This document shows positions 10,301 to 57,024 of a stretch of DNA of 64,000 nucleotides, piece after piece. The notes beneath the pieces are model-generated. The model made no database searches. It saw only the letters and a program-made list of their open reading frames with translations, and was not told where the DNA came from. Within the stretch, counting starts at the first letter, position 1, and each line of letters starts with the position of its first letter. This stretch comes from a virus (taxonomy: Duplodnaviria; Heunggongvirae; Uroviricota; Caudoviricetes), in the IMG/VR virus record IMGVR_UViG_3300010354_007935, positions 46,284-110,283 of that record, one strand, 5' to 3'. The position numbers and the translations under genes are program-made.

Positions 10301-13300
10301 CCAAGCTACAATTTCATCTCTGATAAATTGTTTGTTAGCTACTAAATTATTTTTTAATTTTACTGCATCAGCAGTAGAGTTAGCGTTTGAAGGATATGTA
10401 ACTGCTGGCGCAGCGCCTACACCTTGTTCAATAATAGTTTGAATGATGCTATAGCTGGTAGTTAACGAACTTAATGCAGTAGGGTTAGTTGTATAGGTCT
10501 GTGCTAAATCTCTTGACTTTAAGATACCAACAACGGTTTGACTTTGTTGTGCGCCAACAACTATTGAAGCGTCAGCTCTTAGATAAGCAAGTCCAGCTTT
10601 AACTGCTTGATAGTTAGAACCAACAGTCATATCATATGTAACAGCATCTAAAATTAAACCAACATCTCGAGCACATACTGTATTATCATAGAAGCTAGCT
10701 GCATCATATGGAGTATTAACGTCCATACGTAGAACAACGGTTGCTGTTGTAGAGTCGTAACTTAATATATCGTTAATCTGATAACGATAACCTTGTACAT
10801 AGAATGCACATGGGGGTAGTGGTGCTCTTACATCTAAACCGCTATTAGGATAACCAGTAACAGTAACAGTGAGCCCACTATCAGCAACAGCAGTGATATT
10901 TCCTTTTAGACGCCCTGCGAACCCGTCAATAAACTGTCCACCAGCAAAACGTTTGTAATTGTTAGACTGACTAAACGATGAACAAACTTGTCCGTACGGT
11001 GATTTGGTTTTAATCTGTCCTTCTGGGTCAAGTACCATGGCAAATCCGCCGTGGCCCTGAATTGTAACGTTATTAACACGTACTGCATCGTTACATAGGA
11101 ATACGTCAATATCTCTATTGTTCTTAGGAGTTGAAGTAACATCTAAAGGATCGGTTAGGTAGAATCTTCCGTAGTTGATTGGAGAGTACAAGTGCCAAGA
11201 ACCTGGCGCATAAACTCCGCTGGTTTCGAATGGATAAATCACAGACAAGTTAGCAACGTTGCCGCTAACGCTGTCGATAACAGCTCGGCCAGGGTTGGCG
11301 TTATTTGCAGGATTGTTATCTTCTAGTACCTTACCAATCCAACTACTAGGTACTTGACCTGTACCTAGTGTAAAGGTAATCTTGTTAGTTGTACCACTTA
11401 ATGTAATTGTGCCACTTGCATAGTCAGTATCTCTATCTAAAATACCAACTAACATTGCGTCAATAACGGCATCTCGATAGAAGAATACTTTACGCCATGG
11501 ACTTTGGCTTATGCGATTCTTTGGACGAATAATTGTTCTGCGGAATTCGTCACCTTTAATACTAACGTTGGTAGGTAATTTAATTGGATAATCTTCGTAG
11601 TAAATTCCTGCTTCAACGAAAATAACAATTTGTAAATCAGTTACACTTTCACCAAACTCTAGTTGTTCTCCTGTTTGGAAGAAGCCCGGGCGTGTTAATC
11701 GATATGTAATAGTATCGATTGCTGTACTCACTCCAGGATCGTAGCTTACAACAGTAGCAAATGCATTACTGTCGATACCAACAAGTACCTTAGCTGGAAT
11801 AATATCAACATTACCTGGTGATCCTTGGTCTACGTAACCATTACCACCGTTATCAAATTTGATTGTCCATAATCCACTTCCGTATGTTGGAGTAGGAGCT
11901 GCACCAAAGCCGTACTGGATAATGTTAATCATTATATCCATGTTGGCAATAAAATCGTTCACTGCGGCAATACTAGCATTTTTACCACTTGGTGTTGATT
12001 GTGTAACAAGGGTTTGATAGCGTGTTCCAGTAATTTTATTAAGTACTTGAATACCTAATTCTTTAGCAAAAAGGATTCCGTCTAATGTTTCAGTAAATTG
12101 AGTTCCAATTGCAATAGCTTTTGCGCTGGCATTTTTGTAATAACTCTTTCCTGCAAATACACTTTGCCATGTTCCGTCTGTGAGTAAATCAATACTCATG
12201 GCATCGATAATATATCCAACATCTCGGTAACAAATTGCTTCGTCGTAGTTGAATCCTCCAGAGAATGTTTTATCAATGAAGTCTGTTGTTTCATAACCAA
12301 TAGTAGTTCTATTGTTTAATATAATAGTCCTTACCGCAATTAAATCAGGATCGTATACAAGAGATGTAATTGCTGGTTCAGTTAACGTTAATGTTGGTGT
12401 TGGTAAGACACTAGGATTATCTTCGGCGACTTCTCGCACAGCGGCCCAGGAGTCGGTTATTGCTTGGTTAGCAGCCGCGCCTCCAGTTAATGCTGGATTT
12501 ATTACCTGCGGTGTAGCAGAATATAAAATTCCAGGAGTTGTATTAGTACTAACTAGTAAAGTTAATGACTGTGCAAAAGCAAAGGCAGCGTATGTTGCTG
12601 TTTGCTCAGCCAGTGCAATTTGACTAGTATTTCCAATCCAATATTGATATCCTGCAAATATACCCGCACTATTTCCGCCATAAGTGATGTCATAGCAAAC
12701 TGCTTCTAAAATATATTGTAAATCTCGCTTACATGTATCATTGTTGTAGACAAGACCTGGGTAATTAGTATTAATCCAACCAATAGTCTCATCTTTAATA
12801 AAGTTAAAGTTAGCTTCGATTAACAATCTTGCATTTGTGATTCCGGTGCTTAATCCAGTAGGGCTATTGTTTATCGGTAAGGATCTAGTTACTAGTCCAT
12901 CTTGTAGTAAATCGATGATAACTTGGAACTTGTCGTTTATTGTTGATAATATTACTGGATCATTGACAACAGGATAATTATCGGAAATATAATCAATTGC
13001 TACGTTTTCTAAATTATTTGTTTGTGCAAGCACAGCAGTTCTTGCAGTTTGTAGCACAGATGGTGCTGCCGCAACAGTTGGAGCAACAACTGCTGGGGCA
13101 TTATTATAATCATTAATGATAGCAGCTATGTATCCAATGTTTAACGAGATAGAACTGTTAGCTGCACCACCGCCTTGTCTGGTTTCGTTTCTGTATTGTT
13201 TTACACTAGTTTGATAGAGTATAGAAGGATTTCCGTTTGTTGTAACAACTTGTGCAAGTACGCCTAAGTAATTAACTGCTGCTATTGTTGCAGTAACTTC

Positions 13301-22216: not shown

Positions 22217-23034
22217 GTGGCTGCAAAACCAAATTTTGGGTCGCTTCTTAGTTTTTGGGCAATTTTTTTGGCTGTGTCTATATGGTAATTTCTCCCCCAA
22301 TGAGAACCGTCCCTAGCCATATTTTGGGGTTCGTGGTCTCTGTCAGTTGGAAAATACAAATCGCATACATGCTCTTCGGCTGTTTTATTGTATTCAGTAT
22401 TCATACACCAATTGTATACTGGTACTCCAACAGCATTCCAAATTGCCTGAGTAGATTTAAAAGCAATATAACTATCAAACAAATAAGATTCTGTTTTAAC
22501 CGAATAGTCCCATTGAGCCAATGCTTCAGGAACTTTAAGGACTTTGCCCATAGACTGTGGAACCATATCAGTCCACACATCTAGTCGTTTAAAGATTTGT
22601 CTTGCAATAGACGGCCATTGGCACACTACAAATTTGGGCCTAAGTTTTGTGTTTGATATAAAACACATGCTATTTAAAAAAATTACTTGAGACCCTGTTC
22701 CTCCTAACCCGTGATTTAAATAATCCATTTCTAGTTCAGAGCCGAGAACATAAGGCCATGTTTCATCTTCTGCCAGGCCGACACCTTCTGTGTAACTACA
22801 ACCGTATGTAATAAAAAAATTTGATTTATCGATTTCGTAAAGATTCTTTGATCGATATCCTAAATCATCGCGTCGGTAAAAAACTTCTTTGCTTCTATAG
22901 TGCCAGTCCGCTGGCATTTTTTGCAAATTAGCTTCCCATAGTTCTCTCTTGTCTGTAGCTGAAAAATGGTTTGGTTCAGGATCCATGAACCTGGGGTGTA
23001 CAGCATACCTGTTAAATTTATATCGAAAATCCAT
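22213..23034 (-). CDS. SGNH/GDSL-like hydrolase paralogue (GCSYT variant)
   Basis: 273 aa. YGCSYTEGVG (block I with Cys in place of Asp), GLGGTG, C-terminal DGSHW (DxxH). Confidence 0.4.
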   Translation of the reverse strand: MDFRYKFNRYAVHPRFMDPEPNHFSATDKRELWEANLQKMPADWHYRSKEVFYRRDDLGYRSKNLYEIDKSNFFITYGCSYTEGVGLAEDETWPYVLGSELEMDYLNHGLGGTGSQVIFLNSMCFISNTKLRPKFVVCQWPSIARQIFKRLDVWTDMVPQSMGKVLKVPEALAQWDYSVKTESYLFDSYIAFKSTQAIWNAVGVPVYNWCMNTEYNKTAEEHVCDLYFPTDRDHEPQNMARDGSHWGRNYHIDTAKKIAQKLRSDPKFGFAAT

Positions 23035-23806
23035 ATTCTTCTTTTGTTAATTCTGTGAATAGCCAATCGGCATAAAATTTATGTGCTTCTCTTCCTAAGT
23101 GCCATAACTTATTACTTGTGTCTTGATTTTTAAAACCTGCATCAGAGCACATCCAGTAATAGCTCATATCTTTACGATTGTAATAAGGAAAGTATTTAGT
23201 GTCCAGTAATTTAGTAAGTTTTTGAAACGTTGGAGTATTGCAATAATCGACATAGAAAGAGTCGCCAAACCAATAAGGAATATTAAATTGTTTAAGGATA
23301 CCTTGCAAAGATATAATGTTTTTTATTTTGTTGTCCGACCAAGTTTCGAAACTATTTAAGAACATTGTTTTATACGCCCTAACTACTTCCTGGGTTTCCC
23401 TCCTGCCCCAATCCGGCACTGGGCTTTGGTTTGTAAATGATTGATAATGAGGATCTTCGCAGTAAGAAGAAAATTTTATTTTTAATAAATCCGGATCACC
23501 GAAACGCTCTTGAGAAAAATGGTAATCAAATCTTTCGAACCCAGTCCAGTGTACAAGAAAAAATACATCGAGCTCTTTATTTAAAATCTTTTCTAAATTA
23601 TCTCCAAGCCAAGCCATACTACTTCGACATATACGTTCGTTACTGCCTCCAGGATAGGCCATGTTAATTGCTTCTCTCCCAACCCTTTCTGCAATTAAAT
23701 TTCCAAAGCTATTGCTTCGACAAGTTGGACTATCTCCAACCCCTGCTCCATCTATTTCGCTTCCAGCTGTATGACTACAACCGTTAATTACCAGTACCTT
23801 TTTCAT
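23018..23806 (-). CDS. SGNH/GDSL-like hydrolase paralogue (GCSHT variant)
   Basis: 262 aa. INGCSHTAGSE, YPGGSNERI (GxSN block). Confidence 0.4.
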   Translation of the reverse strand: MKKVLVINGCSHTAGSEIDGAGVGDSPTCRSNSFGNLIAERVGREAINMAYPGGSNERICRSSMAWLGDNLEKILNKELDVFFLVHWTGFERFDYHFSQERFGDPDLLKIKFSSYCEDPHYQSFTNQSPVPDWGRRETQEVVRAYKTMFLNSFETWSDNKIKNIISLQGILKQFNIPYWFGDSFYVDYCNTPTFQKLTKLLDTKYFPYYNRKDMSYYWMCSDAGFKNQDTSNKLWHLGREAHKFYADWLFTELTKEEYGFSI

Positions 23807-24764
23807 ATTTAAACTTTGGTATAATAATGTCTGTTCCGCAAGTGCAATGATGTTTGCCGCATGTTATTTCTTTAGGACCAACTTTAGATACATCATCTAA
23901 TATATGCCCAATATTATCGCCCTGCCCACAACTGGCCATACTAACATTACCTCGTGGATTTATAAAAATACTGTCTCCAATTTTACATTTCCACCCTTTA
24001 AAGAAGTTCTGTCCTTTAACAATAATATCATTGGAACTTAATGGGGATTTCTCCCCATCTGCCCATAGTCCATAACTTACTGCTCCGTTATTTTTTTGCG
24101 GTTTAGGTCTAGTAAACTTCATTTCAACATTGTGTTTATTAATAAACTCAACTTTGCTTGGATCCTTATAGTGCCACGGACCAGCGTTTATGCTTATTTC
24201 ATCAAACAACGGGGTCCACTCAATAAAATAGTTAGGTAAGTTTTCTTTTAAATATTCGCCATATTCTACTACTTCCCAAAATCTTTCATCGTGCATGAGC
24301 ATTTTACTACTTAGATAGTTTACTTTATCGCATAAAAATAAACTGTTCTGAAAGTATTTTATTTTATCTGCAAATTCTATATGGAAGCTAGCTACGACAT
24401 CGTCAAATAATTTGTAGTGCTTTTCCCACCAACCCAGAGGTCGACTAAGGTTAGTATTAACTGCTATAGTAGCATCGGGTAGTTCATTTCTAATCCATTC
24501 ACATATAGGAATAAAATTTCTCCATGCAGTAGGTTCTCCACCACTAAAGAAAAATTTAAATGACTTATATCCAACAGACTTGTATTTTTCAACAATAATT
24601 TGTAGATTTTTTAAGTAAACATCTAAGTTACCGTCGTTAGAGTATGTACCACTCCAGTTTCCTTCATTGCAGTAGCTACATCTGAAGTTACAAAAATTAT
24701 TAACTTGCCATGTTACAGCAAGATAAGGCTGTTGCGGTTCAACAGCGATTAGCTGTGGGCCCAT
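23784..24764 (-). CDS. radical SAM enzyme (N-terminal CxxxCxxC, Cys-rich C-terminus)
   Basis: 326 aa. FCNFRCSYCNEG motif at residues ~23-32, FFSGGEPTAW glycine-rich SAM motif, C-terminal CGQGDN...CGKHHCTCG cluster. Confidence 0.75.
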   Translation of the reverse strand: MGPQLIAVEPQQPYLAVTWQVNNFCNFRCSYCNEGNWSGTYSNDGNLDVYLKNLQIIVEKYKSVGYKSFKFFFSGGEPTAWRNFIPICEWIRNELPDATIAVNTNLSRPLGWWEKHYKLFDDVVASFHIEFADKIKYFQNSLFLCDKVNYLSSKMLMHDERFWEVVEYGEYLKENLPNYFIEWTPLFDEISINAGPWHYKDPSKVEFINKHNVEMKFTRPKPQKNNGAVSYGLWADGEKSPLSSNDIIVKGQNFFKGWKCKIGDSIFINPRGNVSMASCGQGDNIGHILDDVSKVGPKEITCGKHHCTCGTDIIIPKFKYEKGTGN

Positions 24765-26002
24765 TTATAAACCTCCCACAGACCAGGAATGGTTTCGAAA
24801 ATGTCTTCTTTCCTATGTTGATCTAATTTATAGTTGAAATGGAAGAATTCTTTCATACCTTCTTTGTTTTCTTGTCCAGATTGAAGAGTATTCATTACTG
24901 CTTTATATGCATATCGTTGAGTATCAGAATAAGAATAATCGTTGCGAACAGGTTCGTATAATTCTAGTAACTGTTTTTTATAAAACTCTGGAGCTATTAA
25001 TATTGATGCATACCATGGATTGGTCAGTAAGTTTAGTCTTATTTCTTGAGTTTTAGAAAGTAACCCTTTTTCAATCCAGTCTTTGTGAAATTCAGGAAAC
25101 TGATGAACGTTCCATAATGAAATAGTCGGTGTTAATTCGAATAAAACATGCGGCACTTCTTTTTTAATCATTAGTGCATTTAATTCTATATCGTCCCATA
25201 CGGTTCCTTTGCGTACATACTCTGCTAATGGTCCGCTAGCATCTAAACTTGCGTATATTGCCACTTTAGGAAATTTTTTCCAATAGTCTAGTACATTTTT
25301 ATCTTTGTATTTGAATACACTAAAGTTGGTAGTGTACGTTATTTGTACATCAGTTTTTCCTTTCTCTAACCAGTAATCTAAAATTCTATAGTGTTCTGGA
25401 GTAATAAGGGCTTCGCCGCCAGCAAAATAGACTTCCTCGACGTCGTCGAGATAAGGTTCTAATTTATTCCAAAAATCGTCGCCCTCATTATTAGTGACTA
25501 CAATCTTATGCAAGCCAAATCTATCTCTTAATGTAACTTCTCCGTGTCTATCTTTGTATTCTTGGGCCCACTGACTACTACAACTTGGTCCGCAACTACG
25601 GCATTTCATATTGCAGATGTTGCTAAACCTAATGTCCATGTATTTTAGTTGAAAATTTTCAATGGTTCCGTCTTCTTTAGTTTCGTTAACAAGGTGCAAG
25701 TATGTGTTACCTCTTACACGGTTCTGACTTTGTCTTAGACTCCAAGTACCAAGCAATTCTACATCGTAACATCGTTGACATACTTCACTAGGCTCGTTAT
25801 TAATCATCCTCAGACGAAGTTTCTTGTACTCATCCGAGTTCATCATTTTGATAATACTTTCGTCTGTAGTATGAGCTACCGGTTTAGATGAATCGGCCAT
25901 ACAGCAAGGAAACACTTTTGTGTCCGGCCATGCATGGAAATGAATCCACGGTAGGATACAAAAATTTTTTGTATAAAAAATATCTTCTTCAATTTTTCTC
26001 AT
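24749..26002 (-). CDS. radical SAM enzyme with unrecognised N-terminal Cys/His domain
   Basis: 417 aa. N-terminal FCILPWIHFHAWPDTKVFPCC, then the core CNMKCRSC (CxxxCxxC) and YFAGGEALITPEHY. Confidence 0.75.
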   Translation of the reverse strand: MRKIEEDIFYTKNFCILPWIHFHAWPDTKVFPCCMADSSKPVAHTTDESIIKMMNSDEYKKLRLRMINNEPSEVCQRCYDVELLGTWSLRQSQNRVRGNTYLHLVNETKEDGTIENFQLKYMDIRFSNICNMKCRSCGPSCSSQWAQEYKDRHGEVTLRDRFGLHKIVVTNNEGDDFWNKLEPYLDDVEEVYFAGGEALITPEHYRILDYWLEKGKTDVQITYTTNFSVFKYKDKNVLDYWKKFPKVAIYASLDASGPLAEYVRKGTVWDDIELNALMIKKEVPHVLFELTPTISLWNVHQFPEFHKDWIEKGLLSKTQEIRLNLLTNPWYASILIAPEFYKKQLLELYEPVRNDYSYSDTQRYAYKAVMNTLQSGQENKEGMKEFFHFNYKLDQHRKEDIFETIPGLWEVYKWAHS

Positions 26003-26003
26003 A

Positions 26004-27224
26004 TTAACTCATCATAGATTTTAATTCAGGAAAAGTCTTTGTAAAATCTTCTCCTCGTATTTCGTCAACTCTTTTTATTTGAGATTGGAATTCCAATTTA
26101 TATTGATCCCATGTATTTTCAGCATTTGCAAATGAAATAGCGTTTTGCAAACTTTGTGTAGAATAATAATACTCTAATTTTAATTTATAAATTAAGTGCT
26201 GCAATTTTACACTACCTAATTTTTTAAGTTCTTCGGGCATTAGTTGAGAAGAAAAATAAGCAGGGTCCATGCAAGGAAATAGTGATATATTATCTTTAGG
26301 TCGATAAAATCCTTTTACCTTCATATAAGAATAGAATTCTGACAAGGTTAAAAAATTAAACACGCTCATAACAGTATTGAATTGATAATCAATAAAGTCA
26401 TACTGAGTAATTTGTTTTAGATTAGTTTCTATGACGCCCCAGTCAGTTCCGTGCCTAATATACTCTGCACGTTCTCCAAAATGATCGATACTAGCCGACA
26501 ATTCAATTTTTTTAAATTGTTTCCAAAGACCAATCAAATCATTGTTTTTAAATTTAAAATTGCTTAGGTTAGAGTTATATCTTAAAATAATATTTGTTTT
26601 ATTTCTTTTTATAAGCTCTTCTAAAATTGTATAATGTTCTTCTGTAATTAATGGTTCGCCACCTGCAAAATATGCAATTTCAATATTATCAATATGCTCG
26701 TCTAACACTTCTTGAAGTAAGGCTCCTTTGTTATCATCTGCATGTATAATGATAGGAAAATCTTTATTATAAATTCTATTTTCAGCGCCCCATGAGCTAC
26801 TAAATGCAGAACCGCATGTTCTGCATTTAAAATTACAGATATTACTAAAACGAATATCGTAATAGTACATTTTGAAATCTTTGAGGCTACCGTCTTCGTT
26901 GGTGTTTTCTAAGACTTCGTCTAAATGATGAATAAATTTTTCATTTGCATACGTCCTAAAACTCCAATTTTGAGTCTTTTCAGTTTTATAACAAAATTTA
27001 CAAGACGGGCTTTCGACACCATTCATCATGTTTAACCGTATTTGTTTATATCCGTCGGCATTTTTTATTACATCCTTCAAGGTACCATTCTTTACAGACC
27101 CAAAAGGAAGTTTACCGTCTGTAGTACAACAAGGTAGAACATTACCTGAAGGTTCTACGTAGGCGTGTATCCAGGGTAATATACAAAAAGTTTTATTATC
27201 AACTACAGATTTTTTAGATTCCAT
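26004..27224 (-). CDS. radical SAM enzyme, paralogue of 24749..26002
   Basis: 406 aa. FCILPWIHAYVEPSGNVLPCC, then CNFKCRTC and YFAGGEPLITEEHY. Confidence 0.75.
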   Translation of the reverse strand: MESKKSVVDNKTFCILPWIHAYVEPSGNVLPCCTTDGKLPFGSVKNGTLKDVIKNADGYKQIRLNMMNGVESPSCKFCYKTEKTQNWSFRTYANEKFIHHLDEVLENTNEDGSLKDFKMYYYDIRFSNICNFKCRTCGSAFSSSWGAENRIYNKDFPIIIHADDNKGALLQEVLDEHIDNIEIAYFAGGEPLITEEHYTILEELIKRNKTNIILRYNSNLSNFKFKNNDLIGLWKQFKKIELSASIDHFGERAEYIRHGTDWGVIETNLKQITQYDFIDYQFNTVMSVFNFLTLSEFYSYMKVKGFYRPKDNISLFPCMDPAYFSSQLMPEELKKLGSVKLQHLIYKLKLEYYYSTQSLQNAISFANAENTWDQYKLEFQSQIKRVDEIRGEDFTKTFPELKSMMS

Positions 27225-28587
27225 TTTGGTATTCTTTACATAAATTATAAAAATTTGCTAACTCAGGAAATGTTTCTAGAAAATTAACATTCCTTCTTCG
27301 ATCGTATTCATTAAACCAATTATAAAAGTCTTTTCGACCCTCTTTTAATTTATCTTCGGAGTAGTGTGTTGTTTCCATATATGTTACAACACGACGAAAC
27401 TTTTCATACTCCATTTCACTAAAATGAAACCCAGACGAATCATTTAAATTATTTTTGATAAATGATAGACAATCGTGCATATAGGGCATAAACTCATCTT
27501 TAGGTAATATGTTCATGTCATATTGTAGAGGTTCTTTTAAATGCGGAGTATCGAAACGAATTCTATGTTTAGACAAATGTTCATACCATCCGTATTGTCC
27601 GCGCCATTCTAAGATTTTTTCTAGTAAACTTTTAAAATTACTAACGGTAAGAATATTAAAAGTAATCATAAAAGTTACAGGATATTTTGTTTTACTAAGG
27701 TATGTATGAAAATTTCTTTCCCACAGATCTATATCTAGTCCTGTACGAATATATTCTGCACGTTTACCCCATGTATCTAGGCTAGTAAACAACTTAAAAG
27801 ATTTTATTTTATTTTCTAATCTTAATTTTTCAACTTTTTCAGCTAATCTTTCTACTAAAATAGTCTTTACACCTAAGTTACTGTTGAGATTTAACTCTAA
27901 ATTGGGCAAAGGATTCTTATCTAGGTCCTCAAGCAACCGCCAGGTGCTGCGTTGTAGCAAAGGCTCACCACCGGTTATACGCAAGATGTTTAGAGTTTTA
28001 CTGACTTCAGGCCACCATTTCCACCATGCCTCTACATAAGGGTTAGTTTCTTCCTCATAGGTAGTAAACCAATCAATGTCGTTGCGATGATGTTTGACCA
28101 TAGTATAAGGACCAAAGTCTCTTATTTCTTTATGATAAGCACTACTATGTTTAGGATGGCAGTAACCGCATTTAAAATTGCACTCGCTACCAAAACTAAC
28201 TTCAATGTATTCGGGATTTATATTAAAGTCCCAATTGTTCTTTTGTATTTCTTCTATTCTTTCGGGTCTGTAAATACTGGCATTACGTTCGTGCCGATCA
28301 CTAATATAGTCAGGACCAAGTGCCTCTATGTTCCAGCAATACTGACAACCACTGGGTTGATCGCCATCTAACATGGCAGCACGTTGTAGCTTCTTTTCCT
28401 GTGTATTGTGTAATGCACTAGGATTGTCTTTTAATTCGTGTAAAGGAATCTTATGAGGTGCTGGATGATAACAACTATGTGTTTCTCCAGTTTGTAGGTA
28501 TATTGTTGTATGATGCCATTTTGCAAGGCAAAACGTAGGACTAATTTTATTAGTAATGTCCTGTATTTGAATAATTCTATCTTTCAA
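27214..28587 (-). CDS. radical SAM enzyme, distant paralogue with the same N-terminal domain type
   Basis: 457 aa. FCLAKWHHTTIYLQTGETHSCYHP, then CNFKCGYC and ILRITGGEPLL. Confidence 0.7.
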   Translation of the reverse strand: MKDRIIQIQDITNKISPTFCLAKWHHTTIYLQTGETHSCYHPAPHKIPLHELKDNPSALHNTQEKKLQRAAMLDGDQPSGCQYCWNIEALGPDYISDRHERNASIYRPERIEEIQKNNWDFNINPEYIEVSFGSECNFKCGYCHPKHSSAYHKEIRDFGPYTMVKHHRNDIDWFTTYEEETNPYVEAWWKWWPEVSKTLNILRITGGEPLLQRSTWRLLEDLDKNPLPNLELNLNSNLGVKTILVERLAEKVEKLRLENKIKSFKLFTSLDTWGKRAEYIRTGLDIDLWERNFHTYLSKTKYPVTFMITFNILTVSNFKSLLEKILEWRGQYGWYEHLSKHRIRFDTPHLKEPLQYDMNILPKDEFMPYMHDCLSFIKNNLNDSSGFHFSEMEYEKFRRVVTYMETTHYSEDKLKEGRKDFYNWFNEYDRRRNVNFLETFPELANFYNLCKEYQNGI

Positions 28588-29414
28588 TTTAACCTTAAAC
28601 CTTTGAAAGTTGAATGGTGCTGATACTTCCCGCTGATAACTTTACCTATAGGCATGTATTGCCACGCTGTATTGTAGACGTGTCCTTTTTTTAAAAATTC
28701 TGTAAATTCTTTTGATTTTAGGATTTTATTTCTTTCACCATTTGTATCGATGTAAAAGTAATTATAGTAAGAGCACCATTGGGCAGTTATATCCCATTGC
28801 CTCGGATCATCGTCGTCGATGTATGCTTGAAAGTAATCTTTCCCGCAAATAGCCCATGTCATAAAAACATCATACTCGCAATCGTAGTCGAGGTATCTCC
28901 AGTCGCCGGGCTTATGGTCAAAGTATTGATCGTTTTTTAAACTGTTTAATTTAAAGAATTGATAGTTTACATGTTTACTATGAGCTTTTGCAACACCATC
29001 GTAGTAGTTTTCTAAAAAATGCACAACGTCGTTAATTGCAGAAGCCTTTTCATAGAAGATTGAATAATCTTCTCTACTAACGATAGGTCCAGTATCTAAC
29101 GACCAGCAGGTAAAAGATGTACCAGTTGTAAACCATCTATGGATCAAATTTAAATCTTTTCTTGTAAATTGTGTATCTTTTGTCACTTGAAAAGGAAATT
29201 TAACTTTATTAGTAGCGTTAAAGTCTTCAATAGCGGCAATCATTTCTAATCTATATTTTTCTTTTTCGCCGTTATCCTCATAAACACATTGTGGGACGTT
29301 CCAGCAGTCCCACAGATCAGTTGTGTTTAAATGTAAGGCCCAGTCTCTAACTAACGGATTATCTATTAGTTTAATAATAACTGTGTCTTTTTCAAAATCT
29401 AAAATTAGGTCCAT
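28584..29414 (-). CDS. hypothetical protein (276 aa, Trp/Tyr-rich)
   Basis: ORF with start/stop overlap to its neighbours. No motif recognised. Confidence 0.35.
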   Translation of the reverse strand: MDLILDFEKDTVIIKLIDNPLVRDWALHLNTTDLWDCWNVPQCVYEDNGEKEKYRLEMIAAIEDFNATNKVKFPFQVTKDTQFTRKDLNLIHRWFTTGTSFTCWSLDTGPIVSREDYSIFYEKASAINDVVHFLENYYDGVAKAHSKHVNYQFFKLNSLKNDQYFDHKPGDWRYLDYDCEYDVFMTWAICGKDYFQAYIDDDDPRQWDITAQWCSYYNYFYIDTNGERNKILKSKEFTEFLKKGHVYNTAWQYMPIGKVISGKYQHHSTFKGLRLN

Positions 29415-30244
29415 AAGCTGTTGCGAATTTTTATTAGACGAATCATCATTTCTTCGTCTTCTTTATTGTATGCATCTTCTATCTCTTGAGTTTTATCTAA
29501 GGCAACTCTAGACATCTCAGCTTCTTCGGGTGTGCGATCTTCCAGGTCCAACATATGATCGCCTCTTTCACGGCGCATATCACAGTAGGCAGTCCAGCCA
29601 CTGGCATCGTGTGGATCAGGACGCTTAGGATAAACTTCAGTCCACCACTTGTAGAGTGCAAGGATTTCTAAAGCCTTTTCTGCTTGATAAGTAGGCTTTC
29701 CAATTTTAGGATCGCCTGGCTCAAAACCTTCGTCCTCTTTCCAGACAAGCTCGCTTTGCCATTTGAGGTTATCAAGACCGGCCTGCGGACAACGCCATGT
29801 ACGAATTCGCCACCAACCTACTGCCCACCAAGGCATGTTATACTTAGGTCTTTCTTCGGGACTCCAGGCAAGATGCCACCAAGCAAGTTCAACTTCAACA
29901 AAGTCTACAAGCTCGTTGAACAAGCAAGGTAGGAACCGGTTGCCCACGTCGCACCACTGACCGGGCTTGATGTCGCGAGGGTGAGCGGTAAGACTATGAG
30001 TGCGACTAATCCAACGGTTATTAATATAATACTTAATGTCATAAATTTTATCCATAGGCCACCAGATAAAGTTCTGGATAGCATCTAGTGCCTCTTCGGC
30101 AATCCAATAGCGTATGGGATGCAATTGTTTGCCTTCTTTTTCCCATTCGCGCCAGCCGCGACCAGTTTTAGCGCCGCCTTTTTTGATGCCACGAACCCAG
30201 TCGGCAAATTTTGAACAACTCCAGTAATTACTTCTTTGTGCCAT
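29405..30244 (-). CDS. hypothetical Trp-rich protein (279 aa)
   Basis: Unusually high Trp content (WWPM, AWWHLAW, PWWAVGWWRIRTW). Co-operonic with the rSAM genes. Confidence 0.35.
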   Translation of the reverse strand: MAQRSNYWSCSKFADWVRGIKKGGAKTGRGWREWEKEGKQLHPIRYWIAEEALDAIQNFIWWPMDKIYDIKYYINNRWISRTHSLTAHPRDIKPGQWCDVGNRFLPCLFNELVDFVEVELAWWHLAWSPEERPKYNMPWWAVGWWRIRTWRCPQAGLDNLKWQSELVWKEDEGFEPGDPKIGKPTYQAEKALEILALYKWWTEVYPKRPDPHDASGWTAYCDMRRERGDHMLDLEDRTPEEAEMSRVALDKTQEIEDAYNKEDEEMMIRLIKIRNSLWT

Positions 30245-30999
30245 TATTTTTTCCAGTTAAAAGGACATTTACTTTTTTCTTCTTGTTTATCGATTATTTG
30301 TTTTTGCACTTTGTATTTGTTTAAAAAAGATGTAGGTATTAACCTTTCTCGCATATTAAAGTATTCTTCATTGTTTACTTTGTGCAAGTGAATTTTTAAT
30401 TTTCTTTCTGAAACAGGAACTATATTAACTAATGGTGTTCCTTGCTTAATAAACAATGGTTGTCCAGGGTTGCTAAAATGTAAAAACAAATTAATATCTG
30501 TGTTTGTATTGTATTTGTAATTCAGTGATGCTGGAGGAATAACAATTTCGTGAGGGTTATGAAACGCCCAAGTATTTCCAATCCAACTAAACTGAATATC
30601 TTCTTTACAACTAATAAGCCACGGTGAGTGTAATTTTAAATGAATAAAATCTTTTTGGTCAAGATATCCAGACATTTGTCTGAAATCGTGACTCATTGCA
30701 CCGCTTACACTATCGCTATATTGCCAATTAAATGTTCCGTTGTTTCTATCAACTCCAACTAACAAATCAGACCACATTGGAATCGTCATTCCGTTTTTAT
30801 AAAAATCTAAAAACCCCGCACAACTTTTCATAGTTGGTATCGGGGCCATCGAGCCTTCTTTGTTAAAACTTTTCGGTAGTGATTTCCACCAATCCGGAAA
30901 AAATTTATGGCTATAATCTATAGGGTAAAGGTCATGCACATATTGTCTACTTGTAAAACAATCGACGTGCAGGACCTTCTTTTTAAAAAAAAATAACAT
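30244..30999 (-). CDS. hypothetical protein (251 aa)
   Basis: ORF with ATGA-type coupling. No motif recognised. Confidence 0.35.
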   Translation of the reverse strand: MLFFFKKKVLHVDCFTSRQYVHDLYPIDYSHKFFPDWWKSLPKSFNKEGSMAPIPTMKSCAGFLDFYKNGMTIPMWSDLLVGVDRNNGTFNWQYSDSVSGAMSHDFRQMSGYLDQKDFIHLKLHSPWLISCKEDIQFSWIGNTWAFHNPHEIVIPPASLNYKYNTNTDINLFLHFSNPGQPLFIKQGTPLVNIVPVSERKLKIHLHKVNNEEYFNMRERLIPTSFLNKYKVQKQIIDKQEEKSKCPFNWKK

Positions 31000-31694
31000 T
31001 ACTCTTTCTTTTCACCAAACAACTGTAGCAGGTTCAAGAATAGATTAATAAAGTCCAAATAAAGTGTAAGAGCACCACGAATTTCTGCAATGCCGTCGTT
31101 CTCCATACTGACTTCTTCTCTAATCTGCTGTGTATCGTAGGCAGTAAGTCCGAGGAAAATTAGTATAGCAATAGCACTAATAACCATTTGCATAACTGTA
31201 CTACCAATAAAGATATTTACAATACTAGCAATGATGATAGCAATCAATCCGACAAACAACAAACTACCCAATCCACTAAGATCCTTTTTAGTAAAGTACC
31301 CGTAGCCGCTCATAACACCAAACAGGATTGCACCTCCCATGAAGGCACTGACAATACTGCCCATGTTATAAATGACAAAAATTGTAGCAAAGCTCAAACC
31401 CATTAGTGCGGCAAATCCGTGTAGGCAAAGCTGAGCCATGCTCTTAGTAGGACTCGCATTAAGCAGAATAGTAACACCAAAAATTGCAACTAATGGTGCA
31501 AAAATAACAATCCACTTCATAATTCCTGTAAAGAAAAACGCCATAAGACTGGCATTTGTTCCTACAAGGAAACTTACAATCATACTGGTCAATACTGCTA
31601 GAGCCATATGTCCATAAACACGGCCCATTGCGCTGTTGATTTCGCTAGCAGAGCGATAACTAACAGTATTATCCATGTAACTAGTTCCAAACAT
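30999..31694 (-). CDS. Bax inhibitor-1 / YccA (TMBIM) family membrane protein
   Basis: 231 aa, 7 predicted TM helices. C-terminal LTLYLDFINLFLNLLQLFG matches the conserved BI-1/YccA LYLDFINLF block. Confidence 0.75.
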   Translation of the reverse strand: MFGTSYMDNTVSYRSASEINSAMGRVYGHMALAVLTSMIVSFLVGTNASLMAFFFTGIMKWIVIFAPLVAIFGVTILLNASPTKSMAQLCLHGFAALMGLSFATIFVIYNMGSIVSAFMGGAILFGVMSGYGYFTKKDLSGLGSLLFVGLIAIIIASIVNIFIGSTVMQMVISAIAILIFLGLTAYDTQQIREEVSMENDGIAEIRGALTLYLDFINLFLNLLQLFGEKKE

Positions 31695-31697
31695 ATT

Positions 31698-32069
31698 TTA
31701 CTCCTTGTTTAAAAATGGTTTCAAATTAGGCGGTGTCCAGCCTTCGGGCTTGAGAACTTTACCATCTTCACGCTTACGAACTTTGCCTGTAACAGAATCA
31801 ATCTTAGCAAAGTTAGTACGCATTACTTCGTTCCAAGCACCTTCACCGTCGGCGCCCATGCTATTTATTGCACCAATAGTTACCACTAAAATATCTATTA
31901 GAGCATCTAATTGTTCAACAGGATCGTTAGCTAAGTAGGCTTCGTTAAGTTCTGTAAATTCTTCTGCGATTAAATCGTAGTAAAGTTTGTATTGTGCGCT
32001 ATTATTTTCGCATACAGTTTGATCGCAAGCGACCATAAATTTAGTTTGATCTGCAAACGGATTAGTCAT
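31698..32069 (-). CDS. MazG-like nucleoside triphosphate pyrophosphohydrolase domain protein
   Basis: 123 aa. LIAEEFTELNEAYL...LDALIDILVVTIG resembles the EExxE/ExxD helix pair of MazG/HisE-type NTP-PPases. Confidence 0.45.
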   Translation of the reverse strand: MTNPFADQTKFMVACDQTVCENNSAQYKLYYDLIAEEFTELNEAYLANDPVEQLDALIDILVVTIGAINSMGADGEGAWNEVMRTNFAKIDSVTGKVRKREDGKVLKPEGWTPPNLKPFLNKE

Positions 32070-32283
32070 TTGTTAATTTTTCCCAAGTTAATTCTTTTCC
32101 TTGAACATGAGCCACACATTTAATGTAGCCGTTTTCGTATGCCCATTGTACCTGTTCTCGAATACGCGATGGACAGTCCGGTAGCACATGTAGCATTGCT
32201 CTAGGATAGACAGCAAGGCCGTCAGTGAGGGTAAAGTTAGGATCACCCTGTCTAATAGTCTTAATGTCTGTACACTTAATCAT
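32062..32283 (-). CDS. hypothetical protein (73 aa)
   Basis: Short ORF in the operon. Confidence 0.3.
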   Translation of the reverse strand: MIKCTDIKTIRQGDPNFTLTDGLAVYPRAMLHVLPDCPSRIREQVQWAYENGYIKCVAHVQGKELTWEKLTND

Positions 32284-32498
32284 TTGAGTGCTTCTAGAGT
32301 TTGTCGTTTTGCCTCGTCTGCAACTTCCATTTTATGAATAGTTTGCAAACCTCTAAACATTTCTTCTACAACATGAATTATAGCTTCTTTACCTTCTTCG
32401 GTCAAGTGACTATATTCCGCTCCAACAGAACTTTCATGCCAAACACGTTGATTTTGACTTAGCTCTAACAACGCACCGTAGATGATGTCTTTGTTCAT
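32280..32498 (-). CDS. hypothetical small protein (start revised)
   Basis: The track ORF 32280..32717 overlaps the ligase 3' end by ~200 nt in another frame. An internal Met (MNKDI) at 32498 removes the overlap. Confidence 0.25.
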   Translation of the reverse strand: MNKDIIYGALLELSQNQRVWHESSVGAEYSHLTEEGKEAIIHVVEEMFRGLQTIHKMEVADEAKRQTLEALK

Positions 32499-32511
32499 TG
32501 AACGTCTTATA

Positions 32512-33834
32512 TTAAATTTTCTCGCCATCTTTAAAGCCTCTGAAACGGATAAACCTCGGAAAACGTAGCGAATAAGAACCATCCTGATTCTGAGTGACTG
32601 CGTCAGCTCGTACTTCCACGACTTTCCCAACCACTTCTTCACGAGCTGTCCAGTAATCATCGCGGTTAGCGTCACTGAAGCCGCTACCAACATTAACTCG
32701 TATAGATTTTTCGTCATCTACACCCTCACAAACCAAGGCACCTAATTTACCTACATTACGACCAGTGCCTTCTTCTACAGCCGTAACAGTCAACGAAACT
32801 TCGATAAAAGGTTTAAGTTTAAGCCAAGCCACACTACGCTTGCATTCATACGGAGCAGTTGGCTCTTTAATCATAATACCTTCGTAGCCGCCTTCGATAG
32901 CCTTTTGATTAATTTCTTTAAAACGCTTTTTACCTTCAGGGGTATCGAGATCGACAGCTTCGTGGTCAAGGCAAGTAACATTAGGTAGTGCATCTTGATG
33001 CTTTTCTACCCACGCTTTGACATAAGCACTACGAGTCAGTTGATCTTTGTCCCAGCTACCTTCTTGGAACTTATCCAACGGGCACATATCAAACAAGTGT
33101 AGCACAGCATCGTCTGCGGCTACATCGCTCTTACGATGAACCTGTTTCATCAAGTCTTGGAAACTGCTAGACATAATTTCGCCGTCTAGTACAAGGTCAT
33201 ACTTAGGAGGATCTTTTTTAACTACGGCACTAATTTGTGATTTAATAGTTTCAAAGTTCACCAGTTCTTTGCCGTTGCGAGAAAACTGATCAACACGGCC
33301 ATCAGTACGAACAATCGTAATAACTCGGACACCGTCGAGTTTGACTTCAATAAGTTTCTTTCCTGTGACCTTTGCCTCATGATTAGCACTATCATGAGCA
33401 AGCTGGCAAGTAAAAATGGGTACAGCATAATTGGGCCATTTCTTTTCTACAACCTTGTTGATTGTTTTTTCGCTGGCGCCGCAACGCAGATCCTTGATAA
33501 GGATGCGACGATACCAACCATTCCACTCAGATTGAGTGGCAGTATTCATCAGTGCCTCAACGGCACTCCTGGCAACATTGCCTGTGAGCTCACGATTAGA
33601 TAAACGCTGAGCAACACTATTAAAAGCATCCCAAGATAAGCCAGGCCCGTCTTCATTAGTTTTCTCCGGTATTTGTTTAAGTCCAAACGTAATCATTGGA
33701 TCTAATGCAAGCTGTGCGCCTTCAAAAAATTCGTTATTACCAGCTTCGGCTTGGGCAAGAATAATTGCTTCTTTATCCAAACGACTATTGTGGGTTTCTA
33801 ATGCGGAAATAACATATTGACAAGGATCGCTCAC
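32512..33834 (-). CDS. lig: ATP-dependent DNA ligase
   Basis: 440 aa. KxDG adenylation motif (EVKLDGVRVI) and downstream ligase motifs (DGEIM..., EGIMIKEP). Confidence 0.85.
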   Translation of the reverse strand: MSDPCQYVISALETHNSRLDKEAIILAQAEAGNNEFFEGAQLALDPMITFGLKQIPEKTNEDGPGLSWDAFNSVAQRLSNRELTGNVARSAVEALMNTATQSEWNGWYRRILIKDLRCGASEKTINKVVEKKWPNYAVPIFTCQLAHDSANHEAKVTGKKLIEVKLDGVRVITIVRTDGRVDQFSRNGKELVNFETIKSQISAVVKKDPPKYDLVLDGEIMSSSFQDLMKQVHRKSDVAADDAVLHLFDMCPLDKFQEGSWDKDQLTRSAYVKAWVEKHQDALPNVTCLDHEAVDLDTPEGKKRFKEINQKAIEGGYEGIMIKEPTAPYECKRSVAWLKLKPFIEVSLTVTAVEEGTGRNVGKLGALVCEGVDDEKSIRVNVGSGFSDANRDDYWTAREEVVGKVVEVRADAVTQNQDGSYSLRFPRFIRFRGFKDGEKI

Positions 33835-33879
33835 AGTAAACTCCAGTAGTTAGTTTACCACTATTATATACGATCTTGT

Positions 33880-34611
33880 TTAGTAAGTCAAGTAGTTGTT
33901 TGTTCGAAATGGCTTGCCAAGTTCAACGTTTGGTAATTGCGAAATGGCTTTTCTTTTGATACGTTTGATAATCGGATGATTATGGTTATGCCCAAACGTT
34001 TCCATATATTTGTAAAACGTAGTTCTCTTATGGCGCTTGTATTGGTTGGAATCCAAATATTTTGCAGCCGCATCAAAGTCATTGTCAAATCGATCATAAA
34101 GATCGCAAGCAATGTTGAAACTAAATGCACCCATTTCATCTCGATCTCCGTAATACTGCTGAGCTTTACGATCACGGGCATAGTACGCTGTGCTTTCGTA
34201 TCCAGGAATGGCTTTAAAGTTTCGGCTGCGGTATTGTCTGCAATGAATTATCTCATGTAACATTGTATCTGCAAATAGCGTACATAGTCGTAGCCAACGA
34301 TGTCTGCTTAATTTGAAATACTGTTGTGTGCTATTATAGCTAAAGATTACTTCAATGTAACGACCCGATTGTGTTTTGTCTGGCACACTATAGTAAGTAC
34401 CGCCAACATAAACATAGCCCTTGTCATTTTTTGGATCTCTATCCATTTTGACTTTAATAGGCATATGGCGCTTGATGTGCTTGGCCATTAATTCGTGTAG
34501 CTTTTCTACACTGAGTCTTTGATCAACAACTTTGCTTTGTATGCTGTTTAACATACAAAATAAAGCGTCTCTTGTGAGCAAACTCCAGTTAAAGGGTTTA
34601 CGGACTACCAT
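33880..34611 (-). CDS. HExxH zinc-metalloprotein family protein (paralogue of 43910..44575)
   Basis: 243 aa. MLHEIIHCRQYRSRN... aligns with IHEYRHQGQYRKRN... in the paralogue. Confidence 0.4.
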   Translation of the reverse strand: MVVRKPFNWSLLTRDALFCMLNSIQSKVVDQRLSVEKLHELMAKHIKRHMPIKVKMDRDPKNDKGYVYVGGTYYSVPDKTQSGRYIEVIFSYNSTQQYFKLSRHRWLRLCTLFADTMLHEIIHCRQYRSRNFKAIPGYESTAYYARDRKAQQYYGDRDEMGAFSFNIACDLYDRFDNDFDAAAKYLDSNQYKRHKRTTFYKYMETFGHNHNHPIIKRIKRKAISQLPNVELGKPFRTNNYLTY

Positions 34612-35260: not shown

Positions 35261-35435
35261 CTTTCTCTCCAAAAATATACGCATCCATTTTGCGCTTAGT
35301 TGTTTCTTCATCCTTCATAGCACAATCAAAACAGATATTCTCATCGTTTGGCCCATAAGGTCTGCACTCGTCTACAACACCACACATTTCACATACTTCG
35401 TCTGGTTGTTGTGCAATAAATCCAGGTCCACTCAT
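35253..35435 (-). CDS. small zinc-ribbon protein (60 aa)
   Basis: [10 protein letters not shown]...CFDCAMKDE (two CxxC pairs). Confidence 0.35.
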
Positions 35436-36235
35436 TAGCGACCGCCGATGTTGCCTAGAGCAGTCATATTGCTAGGAACAATAATAGTGTTGACTTTACC
35501 ATTCTTAATACCTTCGGAGATATTAAGTTCAGCTTGGGCTCGCATGTAAGCAATAGCGGCTGAGTTTTGATTAGCTAGAGCAGCCATACGACGAGCTTCT
35601 GCTTCGGCAGTTTTCACTTCAACTTCCTTTTGTTTGAGTTCGTTTTTACTACGAACCAATTCGTTAGCACTAGCGACAACTGAGTCAGCAGGTACGATGT
35701 TACGAATCAGTACTTGGCCGATAACCAAACTGCCGTCTAGCTTTTCTTCTGCTAGAGTCTTTTGGATCTGCTCCTTGATGCTTTGTTCCATAGTCTGACG
35801 ATTATCTGCCATATCCAATGCTTCGTACTTACGTGCTTCTTTGTAGATAGCATTACGAGCAGTTTGAGTGATGTAATTGTACATCAAATAAATGTCGCCG
35901 TTATGTTTGGCATGAAATGCTTGACTTTTGGTGCTATACAACTCTGCAACTTGTGCTTGATTGATGTTATAGATAACCACAGCATCAAAGTCTTTCATTG
36001 TGCTATTATCTTTAGCAACAGGAGTCATGTCATCAAGTTTGACGTTAACATCCTTGATAGGAAAAGTAAGAACGTCGCCAATCAAAACTTGGTTGAAGGA
36101 TCCGGGCAGAAGCTCGCCACTTTGGACCTGCTTGTCAAAACCAACACGTACACCAACCTCACCGGTTTCGATACGGGTACAGCCAGTAGCGAGAACAGCG
36201 GCGGCGATTAAAGAAAGAGTTGCGATACGTTTCAT
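35435..36235 (-). CDS. SPFH/band-7 (HflC/prohibitin-like) lipoprotein
   Basis: The likely start is MKRIATLSLIAAAVLATGC (lipobox), with a GGAG SD upstream. SPFH-domain pattern (GEVGV...VKLDDMTP...) and an Ala/Glu-rich coiled-coil C-terminus. Confidence 0.65.
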   Translation of the reverse strand: MKRIATLSLIAAAVLATGCTRIETGEVGVRVGFDKQVQSGELLPGSFNQVLIGDVLTFPIKDVNVKLDDMTPVAKDNSTMKDFDAVVIYNINQAQVAELYSTKSQAFHAKHNGDIYLMYNYITQTARNAIYKEARKYEALDMADNRQTMEQSIKEQIQKTLAEEKLDGSLVIGQVLIRNIVPADSVVASANELVRSKNELKQKEVEVKTAEAEARRMAALANQNSAAIAYMRAQAELNISEGIKNGKVNTIIVPSNMTALGNIGGR

Positions 36236-36329
36236 TACATTACTCCAATTGAAAAAAGATAAACTGCCAAAACAAAGCCTAGTGCGGTATACGCAAGGCG
36301 CCCCAAAATTGCTAAAACCATTTTGATTC

Positions 36330-36507
36330 CTTAAAAAATTACAACAATAGCAATTAATGTTGCCAGAGTTAGTATAGCACAACCTAGGCTGTACGTCAAG
36401 AGTTTAGACATGGACCACAGTTCTTTTCCAGTCATTTCTCTCACAGCACGAATACCAAAAAAGAACAATCCAAATACCACAATAAATGCCAAAACTAATC
36501 TAATCAT
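36330..36507 (-). CDS. small hydrophobic membrane peptide (58 aa)
   Basis: Manual translation MIRLVLAFIVVFGLFFFGIRAVREMTGKELWSMSKLLTYSLGCAILTLATLIAIVVIF. ATGA overlap with the upstream gene. A second ~28-aa hydrophobic ORF follows at ~36236..36320. Confidence 0.3.
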
Positions 36508-45844: not shown

Positions 45845-45870
45845 TTGTGCCTCTGTGTGTAGTTAATCGG

Positions 45871-45966
45871 TGCAGACGGTAGGATTCGAACCTACAAAGG
45901 CAGCTAATAGCCTAGCCCTGTTCCCTCCCCGAAGGGAGGAGGTCTACCAATTCCACTCACGTCTAC
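45871..45966 (-). tRNA. tRNA-like element (class-II-like, atypical core)
   Basis: rc gives GTAGACG...GGAATTGGTAGA...GTAGG-TTCGAAT-CCTAC-CGTCTGC-A. This forms a 7-bp acceptor stem, a canonical T-arm (GGTTCGAATCC) and a Leu/Tyr-type D-loop. The central 45 nt contain a perfect 6-bp hairpin with a UUCG loop and do not fold into a canonical anticodon arm. Confidence 0.45.
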
Positions 45967-53765: not shown

Positions 53766-53805
53766 GTTATTATTCTCCTGCCGTTATTTATAGAGCCAAG
53801 AATGT

Positions 53806-53845
53806 GTAGCCAAAAAAAAAGGCTCCGAAGAGCCTTTTAAAGATG
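53806..53845 (-). terminator. rho-independent terminator
   Basis: Minus strand reads AAAAGGCTCTTCGGAGCCTTTTTTTTT, downstream of the SBP-like gene. Confidence 0.55.
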
Positions 53846-53852
53846 TTACATT

Positions 53853-54809: not shown

Positions 54810-54874
54810 TTAACGTTAAATTAGCAGGTCATGACTCCTGCTCAATTATTTATGTCTTTTGGATATAGTAGCCG

Positions 54875-55774: not shown

Positions 55775-55775
55775 G

Positions 55776-57023: not shown

Positions 57024-57024
57024 T

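Follow-up and report, generated by a model that had tools for sequence, protein, structure and literature searches.

A conserved cassette of four radical SAM genes in uncultured large phages, three of them predicted members of the N-terminal twitch family NF033640

Radical S-adenosylmethionine (SAM) enzymes are recognised by a CxxxCxxC motif, which ligates the SAM-binding [4Fe-4S] cluster, together with a GGE motif and a partial TIM-barrel core. In a full SPASM domain, seven to eight conserved cysteines (CX9-15GX4C...CX2CX5CX3C...C) bind two extra [4Fe-4S] clusters. The twitch domain is half a SPASM, and its founding enzyme is BtrN, the 2-deoxy-scyllo-inosamine dehydrogenase, which has a four-Cys auxiliary cluster in a C-terminal twitch and a small carbohydrate-like molecule as its substrate. 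The maturases SkfB, CteB, PqqE and anSME, which act on peptides that are made by ribosomes and modified after translation (RiPPs), fall into the same broad subgroup: they combine a radical SAM core with one or more auxiliary Fe-S clusters in a C-terminal SPASM or twitch domain, and usually come with a RiPP recognition element (RRE) or a partner protein and an adjacent precursor gene. Viperin (RSAD2) acts on the ribose of a nucleotide and itself has no auxiliary cluster, and BlsE (PDB 7vob) is a cytosylglucuronate decarboxylase. Here, we analysed a 64,000-nt stretch of the IMG/VR virus record IMGVR_UViG_3300010354_007935 (positions 46,284 to 110,283; this whole stretch is called the window), which carries a cassette of four tandem radical SAM genes, named A, B, C and R.

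All four genes exist at the coordinates given in a first-pass annotation, made from the sequence of the window alone, and are on the minus strand:

27214-28587, minus strand: A, radical SAM enzyme with a predicted N-terminal twitch, 457 aa, TTG start
26004-27224, minus strand: B, radical SAM enzyme with a predicted N-terminal twitch, 406 aa
24749-26002, minus strand: C, radical SAM enzyme with a predicted N-terminal twitch, 417 aa
23784-24764, minus strand: R, radical SAM enzyme, 326 aa

Successive genes overlap or abut (-11, +1 and -16 nt at the A/B, B/C and C/R junctions), and the cassette is embedded in a gap-free co-directional gene string running from 22213 to 32717, so that no intergenic space is left for a small open reading frame (ORF). 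The CxxxCxxC motif is found at residues 136-143 of A, 130-137 of B and of C, and 25-32 of R, and each of the four proteins has the GGE motif for SAM binding; they therefore belong to the radical SAM superfamily. In A, B and C, the motif had been noted before but at a depth of about 110 residues; it lies about 130 residues in. The Pfam Radical_SAM model (PF04055) is matched above its gathering score by A (31.8 bits), B and R, with C at 21.9 bits, below the threshold of 29.5. Models made with AlphaFold2 (AF2) also match radical SAM cores. No B12-binding, UPF0004 (methylthiotransferase) or LipA-type domain was found in A, B, C or R with Pfam or NCBIfam, in agreement with the earlier exclusion of these three types.

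The proteins A, B and C are, with near certainty by profile matching, full-length members of a catalogued but uncharacterised family, NCBIfam NF033640 (N_Twi_rSAM). They score 321.8, 361.6 and 370.3 bits, respectively, against a curated cut-off of 170, and their residues from about 10 to 447 cover the model from position 1 or 2 to position 397 or 398, the match of A comprising residues 16-447. The full-length hidden Markov model (HMM) E-values of 1e-96 to 1e-110 are far beyond chance. All three have the architecture of the family, with an N-terminal twitch followed by the radical SAM core and a helical C-terminal region. Proteins of the A, B and C types are also contained in PHROG 14086 (E = 4e-13 to 2e-9). 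The three paralogues are just 19-34% identical to each other in pairwise comparison, which argues for an old triplication after which every copy was retained.

The region ahead of the core had been described in the first-pass annotation as an undescribed Cys/His domain, distinct from SPASM and twitch. The shared F-C...W.H...C module is real, with F14, C15, H21 and C34 invariant across nine orthologues and paralogues; the novelty of the domain is refuted by its alignments to PF13186, NF033640 and the twitch of BtrN. An extra CxxC (C75 and C78), located about 40 residues past the PCC/SCY element, had been overlooked. When A, B and C were aligned with orthologues from two other contigs (alignment A1), C15, C34, C75, C78, C130, C134 and C137 were all invariant, the first four as likely ligands of one auxiliary cluster and the last three as likely ligands of the SAM cluster. 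It is therefore near certain, as far as sequence can tell, that the module is a twitch, or half-SPASM, domain for an auxiliary [4Fe-4S] cluster, moved ahead of the core to the N-terminus. The three domains were delimited as follows:

28240-28542, minus strand: twitch domain of A, about residues 16-116, from alignment A1 and from the A1 profile against the BtrN twitch
26895-27197, minus strand: twitch domain of B, about residues 10-110, from the Pfam SPASM match and the alignment with the SPASM regions of PqqE and GeoRSP
25673-25969, minus strand: twitch domain of C, about residues 12-110, from the Pfam SPASM match and alignments A1 and A2

In the numbering of each protein, the twitch cysteines are C20, C39, C81 and C84 in A, C14, C32/33, C75 and C78 in B, and C15, C33/34, C75 and C78 in C. 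The SAM clusters are at C136/C140/C143 in A and at C130/C134/C137 in both B and C. Pfam SPASM (PF13186) is matched above the gathering score at residues 15-79 of C and 14-78 of B (E = 3.8e-9 for B); A has no separate match to this model, yet all four of its twitch cysteines are kept. The C-terminal SPASM regions of the NCBIfam PqqE and GeoRSP models align weakly to residues 22-81 of B (E = 0.04-0.07), and residues 14-84 of the A1 family profile align to the C-terminal twitch of BtrN, residues 168-259 (E = 3e-3). A, B and C share with BtrN the four cysteines for an auxiliary cluster but have the domain order reversed, and the cores of the two are not close, with no similarity at the equivalog level. 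A full SPASM domain with two auxiliary clusters was considered for A, B and C and rejected: just four conserved cysteines exist beyond the SAM motif, which argues for a twitch with one auxiliary cluster. Extra cysteines N-terminal to the barrel have already been noted for some members of the SPASM/twitch megacluster (RadicalSAM.org paper, PMC9477430). The AF2 model of C (pLDDT 91, pTM 0.85) shows an N-terminal twitch hairpin with helices and an all-helical C-terminal region outside the core, and in structure searches it matches just generic radical SAM cores.

The fourth enzyme, R, had been described as a canonical radical SAM protein with a Cys-rich C-terminus, and this is borne out by its motif and its invariant cysteines. 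It is a smaller enzyme that scores only 31.6 bits against NF033640 (cut-off 170) and so lies outside the family. Its SAM cluster is N-terminal (C25/C29/C32), and a set of invariant cysteines in the conventionally placed C-terminal region (C260, C279, C302, C307 and C309) probably binds a twitch-like auxiliary cluster. Among PDB entries, the sequence search with R gave only spurious matches to PotF and the profile search only marginal matches to MoaA; a tblastn search of R against phage records gave no match.

The cassette is conserved well beyond this phage. A scan of IMG/VR yielded at least 600 stretches, of which the best 80 loci, from contigs of up to 518 kb, were analysed, and 77 viral loci carry genes of both the A and the R type. 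In most of these 77, BLAST mapping shows the order A, one to three B-like genes, C and R on one strand, with cassette orthologues 42-74% identical across loci (58-73% for A). A minority is rearranged, a few subclades having A-C-C'-R-B or longer arrays. The C protein is found without change on 23 public contigs, as are other window proteins, and in more distant contigs of 96-301 kb all four genes recur with their order unchanged. A pair of C-type and R-type genes is also present in metagenome-assembled genomes (MAGs) of Bdellovibrio, at 41-43% identity. That four genes are kept together and ordered in most of the viral loci supports the earlier suggestion of a multi-enzyme radical module. The definition of NF033640 includes neither the fixed A-B-C-R order nor an additional enzyme that is not itself a member. 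The cassette appears to be a conserved unit of uncharacterised function in many large uncultured phages, undescribed in the literature that we searched. The first-pass annotation had been ready to give up its view if the N-terminal module were a known domain of a characterised family and the array a known cassette; the domain proved to be known, but the family is uncharacterised and the array corresponds to no known cassette. What is new is thus not a protein architecture but the presence of further members of a catalogued family in an undescribed conserved phage cassette.

The family itself is large. An NF033640-type profile searched against 1.84 billion representative proteins gave 13,524 clusters with a threshold of E <= 1e-3; of these, 9,601 were left at E <= 1e-10 and 4,473 at E <= 1e-30 (clusters at 50% identity, the last number being a lower bound). 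By tblastn, distant copies (22-25% identity) were found in Vibrio KVP40-like phages, in K566 and K567, and in the Ralstonia phage RsoM2USA. In Vibrio K566, three or more genes annotated as "radical SAM" form an array and one more copy is unannotated, and the A-type gene of RsoM2USA, 36% identical to A, is annotated as "hypothetical". A multi-step radical pathway of this kind had been believed to be undescribed in phages. This does not hold for the proteins, as PHROG 14086 and these copies were already on record; it holds in that they carry only such generic labels and that no paper on them was found. Literature searches on N-terminal twitch or SPASM domains, the family name, KVP40 and RsoM2USA gave no functional work on the family, and neither a function, a structure nor a paper was found for NF033640, whose model bears a name only. 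A phmmer search of B against solved structures in the PDB gave no sequence match, megablast of 22000-30500 against 50,697 phage records gave none, and Rfam matched nothing in the window. NF033640 is therefore a large enzyme family without a known reaction, concentrated in large phages as multi-paralogue cassettes, and its cultured carriers (RsoM2USA, Vibrio K566 and KVP40) make genetics and glyco-analysis of virions feasible.

Outside phages, the chromosomes of Bdellovibrionota carry arrays of two to eight family members, and arrays of up to eight adjoin rplU-rpmA-obg on chromosomal contigs. In several of these genomes (L010, L028, L047, L049, L055 and L056), A-type copies are paired with a protein of 320 aa. 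It matches no Pfam or NCBIfam model and shows a nucleotidyltransferase-like G.SDLDLT motif, read from the sequence without confirmation by HMM. A single shorter member (about 350 aa) was seen in about ten genomes of Flavobacteriales/Vicingaceae, in the order hemB-hemL-hemE-...-rSAM-ChaN (MAGs L025, L029-L032, L034-L037 and L039-L040, around position 10001). The neighbouring haem-binding ChaN protein is clearly recognised (PF04187, E = 8e-57), and this setting suggests a tetrapyrrole-related role for the Flavobacteriales subgroup. Because this member sits between hemB-hemL-hemE and ChaN, the family is probably not mono-functional.

In this uncultured large phage, the cassette belongs to an accessory island, at about 22213-29414, that is flanked on either side by a conserved phage gene, W279 and p392. 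The island contains, in order, u276, A, B, C, R and two SGNH-like genes. Its edges and its remaining parts are:

29405-30244, minus strand: W279, Trp-rich conserved phage gene, 279 aa, upstream island edge
28584-29414, minus strand: u276, 276 aa, directly upstream of A with a 4-nt overlap
23018-23806, minus strand: SGNH-like protein (DUF6071; PF19547, E = 4e-8), 262 aa, motif GCSHTAG, downstream of R with a 23-nt overlap
22213-23034, minus strand: second SGNH-like protein, 273 aa, motif GCSYTEG, member of alignment A7, last gene of the island
22188-22216, minus strand: sigma-70 consensus TTGACA-17-TATAAT, 12/12 match, in the 57-nt gap after the island
20977-22155, minus strand: p392, conserved phage gene (phrog_11903, E = 3e-63), downstream island edge

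The boundaries follow from W279, which flanks the cassette here but occurs without it in relatives. W279 has 5,292 homologues, the best 120 of those listed being 72-86% identical, and 23 of its 279 residues (8.2%) are tryptophan, as expected from the earlier mention of a Trp-rich flanking protein. It was considered as a partner of the cassette and rejected, being a conserved gene also of related phages that lack the cassette. For example, a cassette-less contig of 357 kb has a W279 homologue, small genes and a 396-aa gene, then PTPS and UvdE, as in the window; the 396-aa gene is taken as the p392 counterpart from its size and position, without sequence comparison. Homologues of p392 are found in PA5oct and in T4-like phages. 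In another related phage, a different radical SAM gene, of 505 aa, directly follows the W279 homologue (L142, 9877-11394), and the slot after W279 is possibly a hot spot for cargo genes of the radical SAM type. The protein u276 has no match in Pfam, NCBIfam or PHROG and was seen just in near-identical contigs, being absent from the related contig L007 and from all other loci; it probably belongs to the island. The two SGNH-like flanks had also been claimed before. Hydrolases of the SGNH/GDSL superfamily have a conserved Ser (block I), Gly, Asn and His (block V). In A7, an alignment of 33 sequences to which both flanking proteins belong, G-C-S and a C-terminal His are invariant and an Asn is nearly so, with the block I Asp replaced by Cys. 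The A7 profile matches mostly GDSL/SGNH hydrolases in the PDB, with weak scores (best E = 0.004), and the two proteins are putative members of this superfamily. In many viral loci, the cassette is followed by a homologue of 23018-23806, and in about 13 by one of 22213-23034. The sigma-70 site at 22188-22216 probably starts the next transcription unit, which is suggestive only, the total of promoter-like sites in the region not being above that of shuffled sequences.

The function of the cassette was approached through its nearest characterised enzymes, its neighbours and its fusions. The nearest enzymes of known function carry out radical chemistry on sugars and nucleotides, and the resemblance is distant. 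In the PDB, the core finds its best sequence match in viperin (E = 5.7e-6), which also ranks second among the NCBIfam models. Foldseek places SkfB first, and BlsE is 11-15% identical in sequence, with a small margin over other radical SAM enzymes. Assignment to the viperin, BlsE, BtrN, MoaA or QueE equivalogs was rejected: the best scores are 13-36 bits where the cut-offs are 180-450, and none of A, B, C and R is matched by the BlsE model; as viperins, the cassette enzymes score 19-32 bits against a cut-off of 180.

Among the viral loci, a 317-aa protein is encoded directly upstream of A in 70 of 77; it is absent from the window. This family has invariant SYDEP and DGD motifs and no Pfam or PDB profile match. 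Its identification as a GT-A enzyme from the DGD motif is unproven, the hhalign match at the DxD site being insignificant, and u276, W279 and the 320-aa partner of Bdellovibrionota were tested as relatives and are not related to it. The RsoM2USA_350 protein belongs to the 317-aa family (hhalign probability 100%, E = 2e-85, 43% identity) and its gene overlaps that of the A-type RsoM2USA_349 (L141, 5025-7386). By homology, the 317-aa protein and the A-type enzyme are thus a conserved gene pair, shared by a cultured soil jumbo phage and the uncultured clade. A 268-aa family without a Pfam match, usually in two copies, is present in 58/77 loci, and its profile matches glycogenin (GT8; E = 3.6e-4). 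A 408-aa family in 66/77 has no match in Pfam or among PDB profiles. Further neighbours are a B12-radical SAM enzyme (44 of the 77 loci), an NAD-dependent sugar epimerase/dehydratase (32) and a UDP-glucose-dehydrogenase-like protein (19); four SGNH-like families and an FkbM methyltransferase also occur. Upstream of the cassette, the relatives encode tail-fibre-like proteins and a counterpart, by homology, of a giant 3,607-aa ORF of the window. Moreover, members of NF033640 occur as fusions, 19 of which were examined (among them P0323, P0304, P0282, P0316, P0360, P0242, P0383 and P0320). A member is joined to a family 2 glycosyltransferase (GT2) in P0323 (E = 2e-31) and to a Methyltransf_24/TylF-like O-methyltransferase in P0304. 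Several members have TPR or Sel1 repeats, and in some proteins, 800-1,466 aa long, the N-twitch radical SAM unit is repeated in tandem, two or three times over.

Our best guess, held tentatively and at somewhat less than an even chance, is that the cassette carries out the stepwise radical tailoring of a sugar, a nucleotide-sugar or a glycan. The neighbours resembling glycosyltransferases, NDP-sugar enzymes and SGNH hydrolases, the GT2 and O-methyltransferase fusions, and BtrN, viperin and BlsE as nearest enzymes all point this way. In each enzyme, SAM would be cleaved at the CxxxCxxC cluster to a 5'-deoxyadenosyl radical, which would abstract one hydrogen from a carbohydrate carbon. The four-Cys twitch cluster, beside the substrate, would accept or return an electron, as in the alcohol oxidation of BtrN or the decarboxylation of BlsE. 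The four enzymes could then perform successive or site-specific steps, such as oxidation, epimerisation, dehydration, decarboxylation or C-C bond formation, with the adjoining SGNH-like proteins adding or removing acyl groups. Most related phages encode glycosyltransferase-like proteins next to their tail-fibre genes, and these would transfer the product to a macromolecule, for which the giant fibre protein is a candidate. Several observations weigh against such a role. No recognisable glycosyltransferase or NDP-sugar enzyme is encoded near the cassette in the 64-kb window, and nothing there is matched by profiles of the three neighbour families that are most frequent in the main clade. The GT8 assignment of the 268-aa family extends over only about 100 residues at its E-value of 3.6e-4. 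Among the 19 fusion proteins examined, those with TPR or Sel1 repeats outnumber those with GT2 and methyltransferase domains and point to protein partners, and the single-copy family members of Flavobacteriales adjoin haem genes instead. A more specific proposal, that A-B-C-R is a self-contained, horizontally mobile pathway for an unprecedented sugar or glycan decoration on the giant fibre or on another surface molecule of virion or host in a widespread clade of uncultured jumbo phages, is doubtful. If true, it would provide the first function and new chemistry for the N-terminal twitch family, which is also expanded in Bdellovibrionota. A role in sugar chemistry would, moreover, mean a phage-borne, oxygen-sensitive, Fe-S-dependent pathway of glycan tailoring, alongside an IscA-like carrier and a superoxide dismutase of the phage.

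Maturation of a protein or peptide was also considered, with the enzymes introducing cross-links, epimerisations or the like into a RiPP precursor encoded elsewhere or into a structural protein such as the giant fibre. TPR or Sel1 repeats are the commonest fusions among those examined, and most viral loci have a homologue of the giant ORF just ahead of the cassette, both as this explanation would have it. We regard it as unlikely. A nearby precursor-peptide ORF, which the first-pass annotation proposed to look for, does not turn up: the island has no room for one, and the 77 loci show no conserved small ORF in the vicinity of the cassette, although a precursor may be encoded at a distance. Neither Pfam nor NCBIfam finds an RRE in the cassette proteins, and the confident AF2 model has no beta3/alpha3 RRE-like element, no dedicated RRE search having been made. 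The RRE or partner protein and the adjacent precursor gene that usually go with RiPP maturases were thus not seen for this cassette, and its auxiliary domains in A, B and C are not C-terminal. The NCBIfam peptide-maturase models score far under their cut-offs, and the GT2 and sugar-O-methyltransferase-like fusions and the sugar-enzyme neighbours would be left unexplained.

Chemistry on a free nucleotide, in the manner of viperin or MoaA, or on a base or sugar of the phage DNA, for hypermodification or anti-defence, is improbable. It would suit the position of viperin as best PDB match to the core and of viperin and MoaA as next-best NCBIfam models, the DNA ligase and MazG genes in the gene string of the island, the QueD-like PTPS gene of the window, and the pairing of Bdellovibrionota A-type copies with the G.SDLDLT protein. 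However, the viperin, MoaA and QueE models reach only 13-36 bits against cut-offs of 180-284, the cassette adjoins fibre and sugar genes rather than replication genes in most relatives, and no thymidylate-synthase-like enzyme, DpdA or DNA glycosyltransferase was seen beside it. Finally, the remodelling of a host cofactor, tetrapyrrole or membrane lipid by the phage copies is very improbable: the haem-gene order of the Flavobacteriales/Vicingaceae genomes, weak structural or HMM matches to enzymes of the GDGT-MAS, HemN, AhbD and NirJ types and a fatty-acid desaturase encoded elsewhere in the window speak for it, but the members from Flavobacteriales, shorter and present in single copy, form a remote subgroup (34-38% identity), none of the phage loci has a tetrapyrrole or lipid gene together with the cassette, and four to six paralogues would be left unexplained.

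The giant ORF (4373-15196, minus strand; 3,607 aa) has a tail-fibre-like N-terminus and a C-terminus resembling intramolecular-chaperone or Peptidase_G2-type ends; it has no Pfam match. Most related viral contigs have a homologue (32-49% identity) just ahead of the cassette, and the giant fibre is for this reason a candidate target of the pathway. Adjoining it are genes for a HesB/IscA-like Fe-S carrier (15196-15537, minus strand; PF01521 on an identical public contig) and an Fe/Mn superoxide dismutase (15834-16397, minus strand), and the pair is also found in the related contig L007. Both could support oxygen-sensitive Fe-S enzymes.

Two further radical SAM genes, at 46523-48001 and 62455-63375 on the plus strand, bring the number in the window to six. 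One of them is B12-binding and weakly PhpK/HpnJ-like, and the other has a MoaA/TrsS-like core with no match at the equivalog level. A long run of metabolic genes, unusual for a phage, occupies 47988-62418 on the minus strand. It encodes a PurD-like ATP-grasp protein, a fatty-acid desaturase, weak QueC-like and GDSL-like proteins, two solute-binding proteins (one clear TRAP DctP and one weak TctC-like) and an Asn-synthase-like protein, together with a BKACE beta-keto-acid cleavage enzyme (E = 1e-93), a short-chain dehydrogenase/reductase, an AMP-binding ligase and a Rieske protein. At 45869-45966 (minus strand), ARAGORN reports a 98-nt tRNA-Arg (TCG) for which Rfam gives no tRNA at the gathering score; either the call is false, or the tRNA is unusual or contains an intron. 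Sigma-70 consensus promoters with 11/12 matches are located at 33863-33891, 32377-32405 and 19423-19450, all on the minus, coding strand, and at least the first of these, as well as the site at 22188-22216, is within an intergenic gap. Also encoded on the minus strand are a UvdE UV endonuclease (17054-18073), a Bax-inhibitor-1/YccA-type membrane protein (30999-31694; E = 2e-53), a MazG/PRA-PH-like pyrophosphohydrolase (31698-32069) and an SPFH/Band-7 protein (35435-36382).

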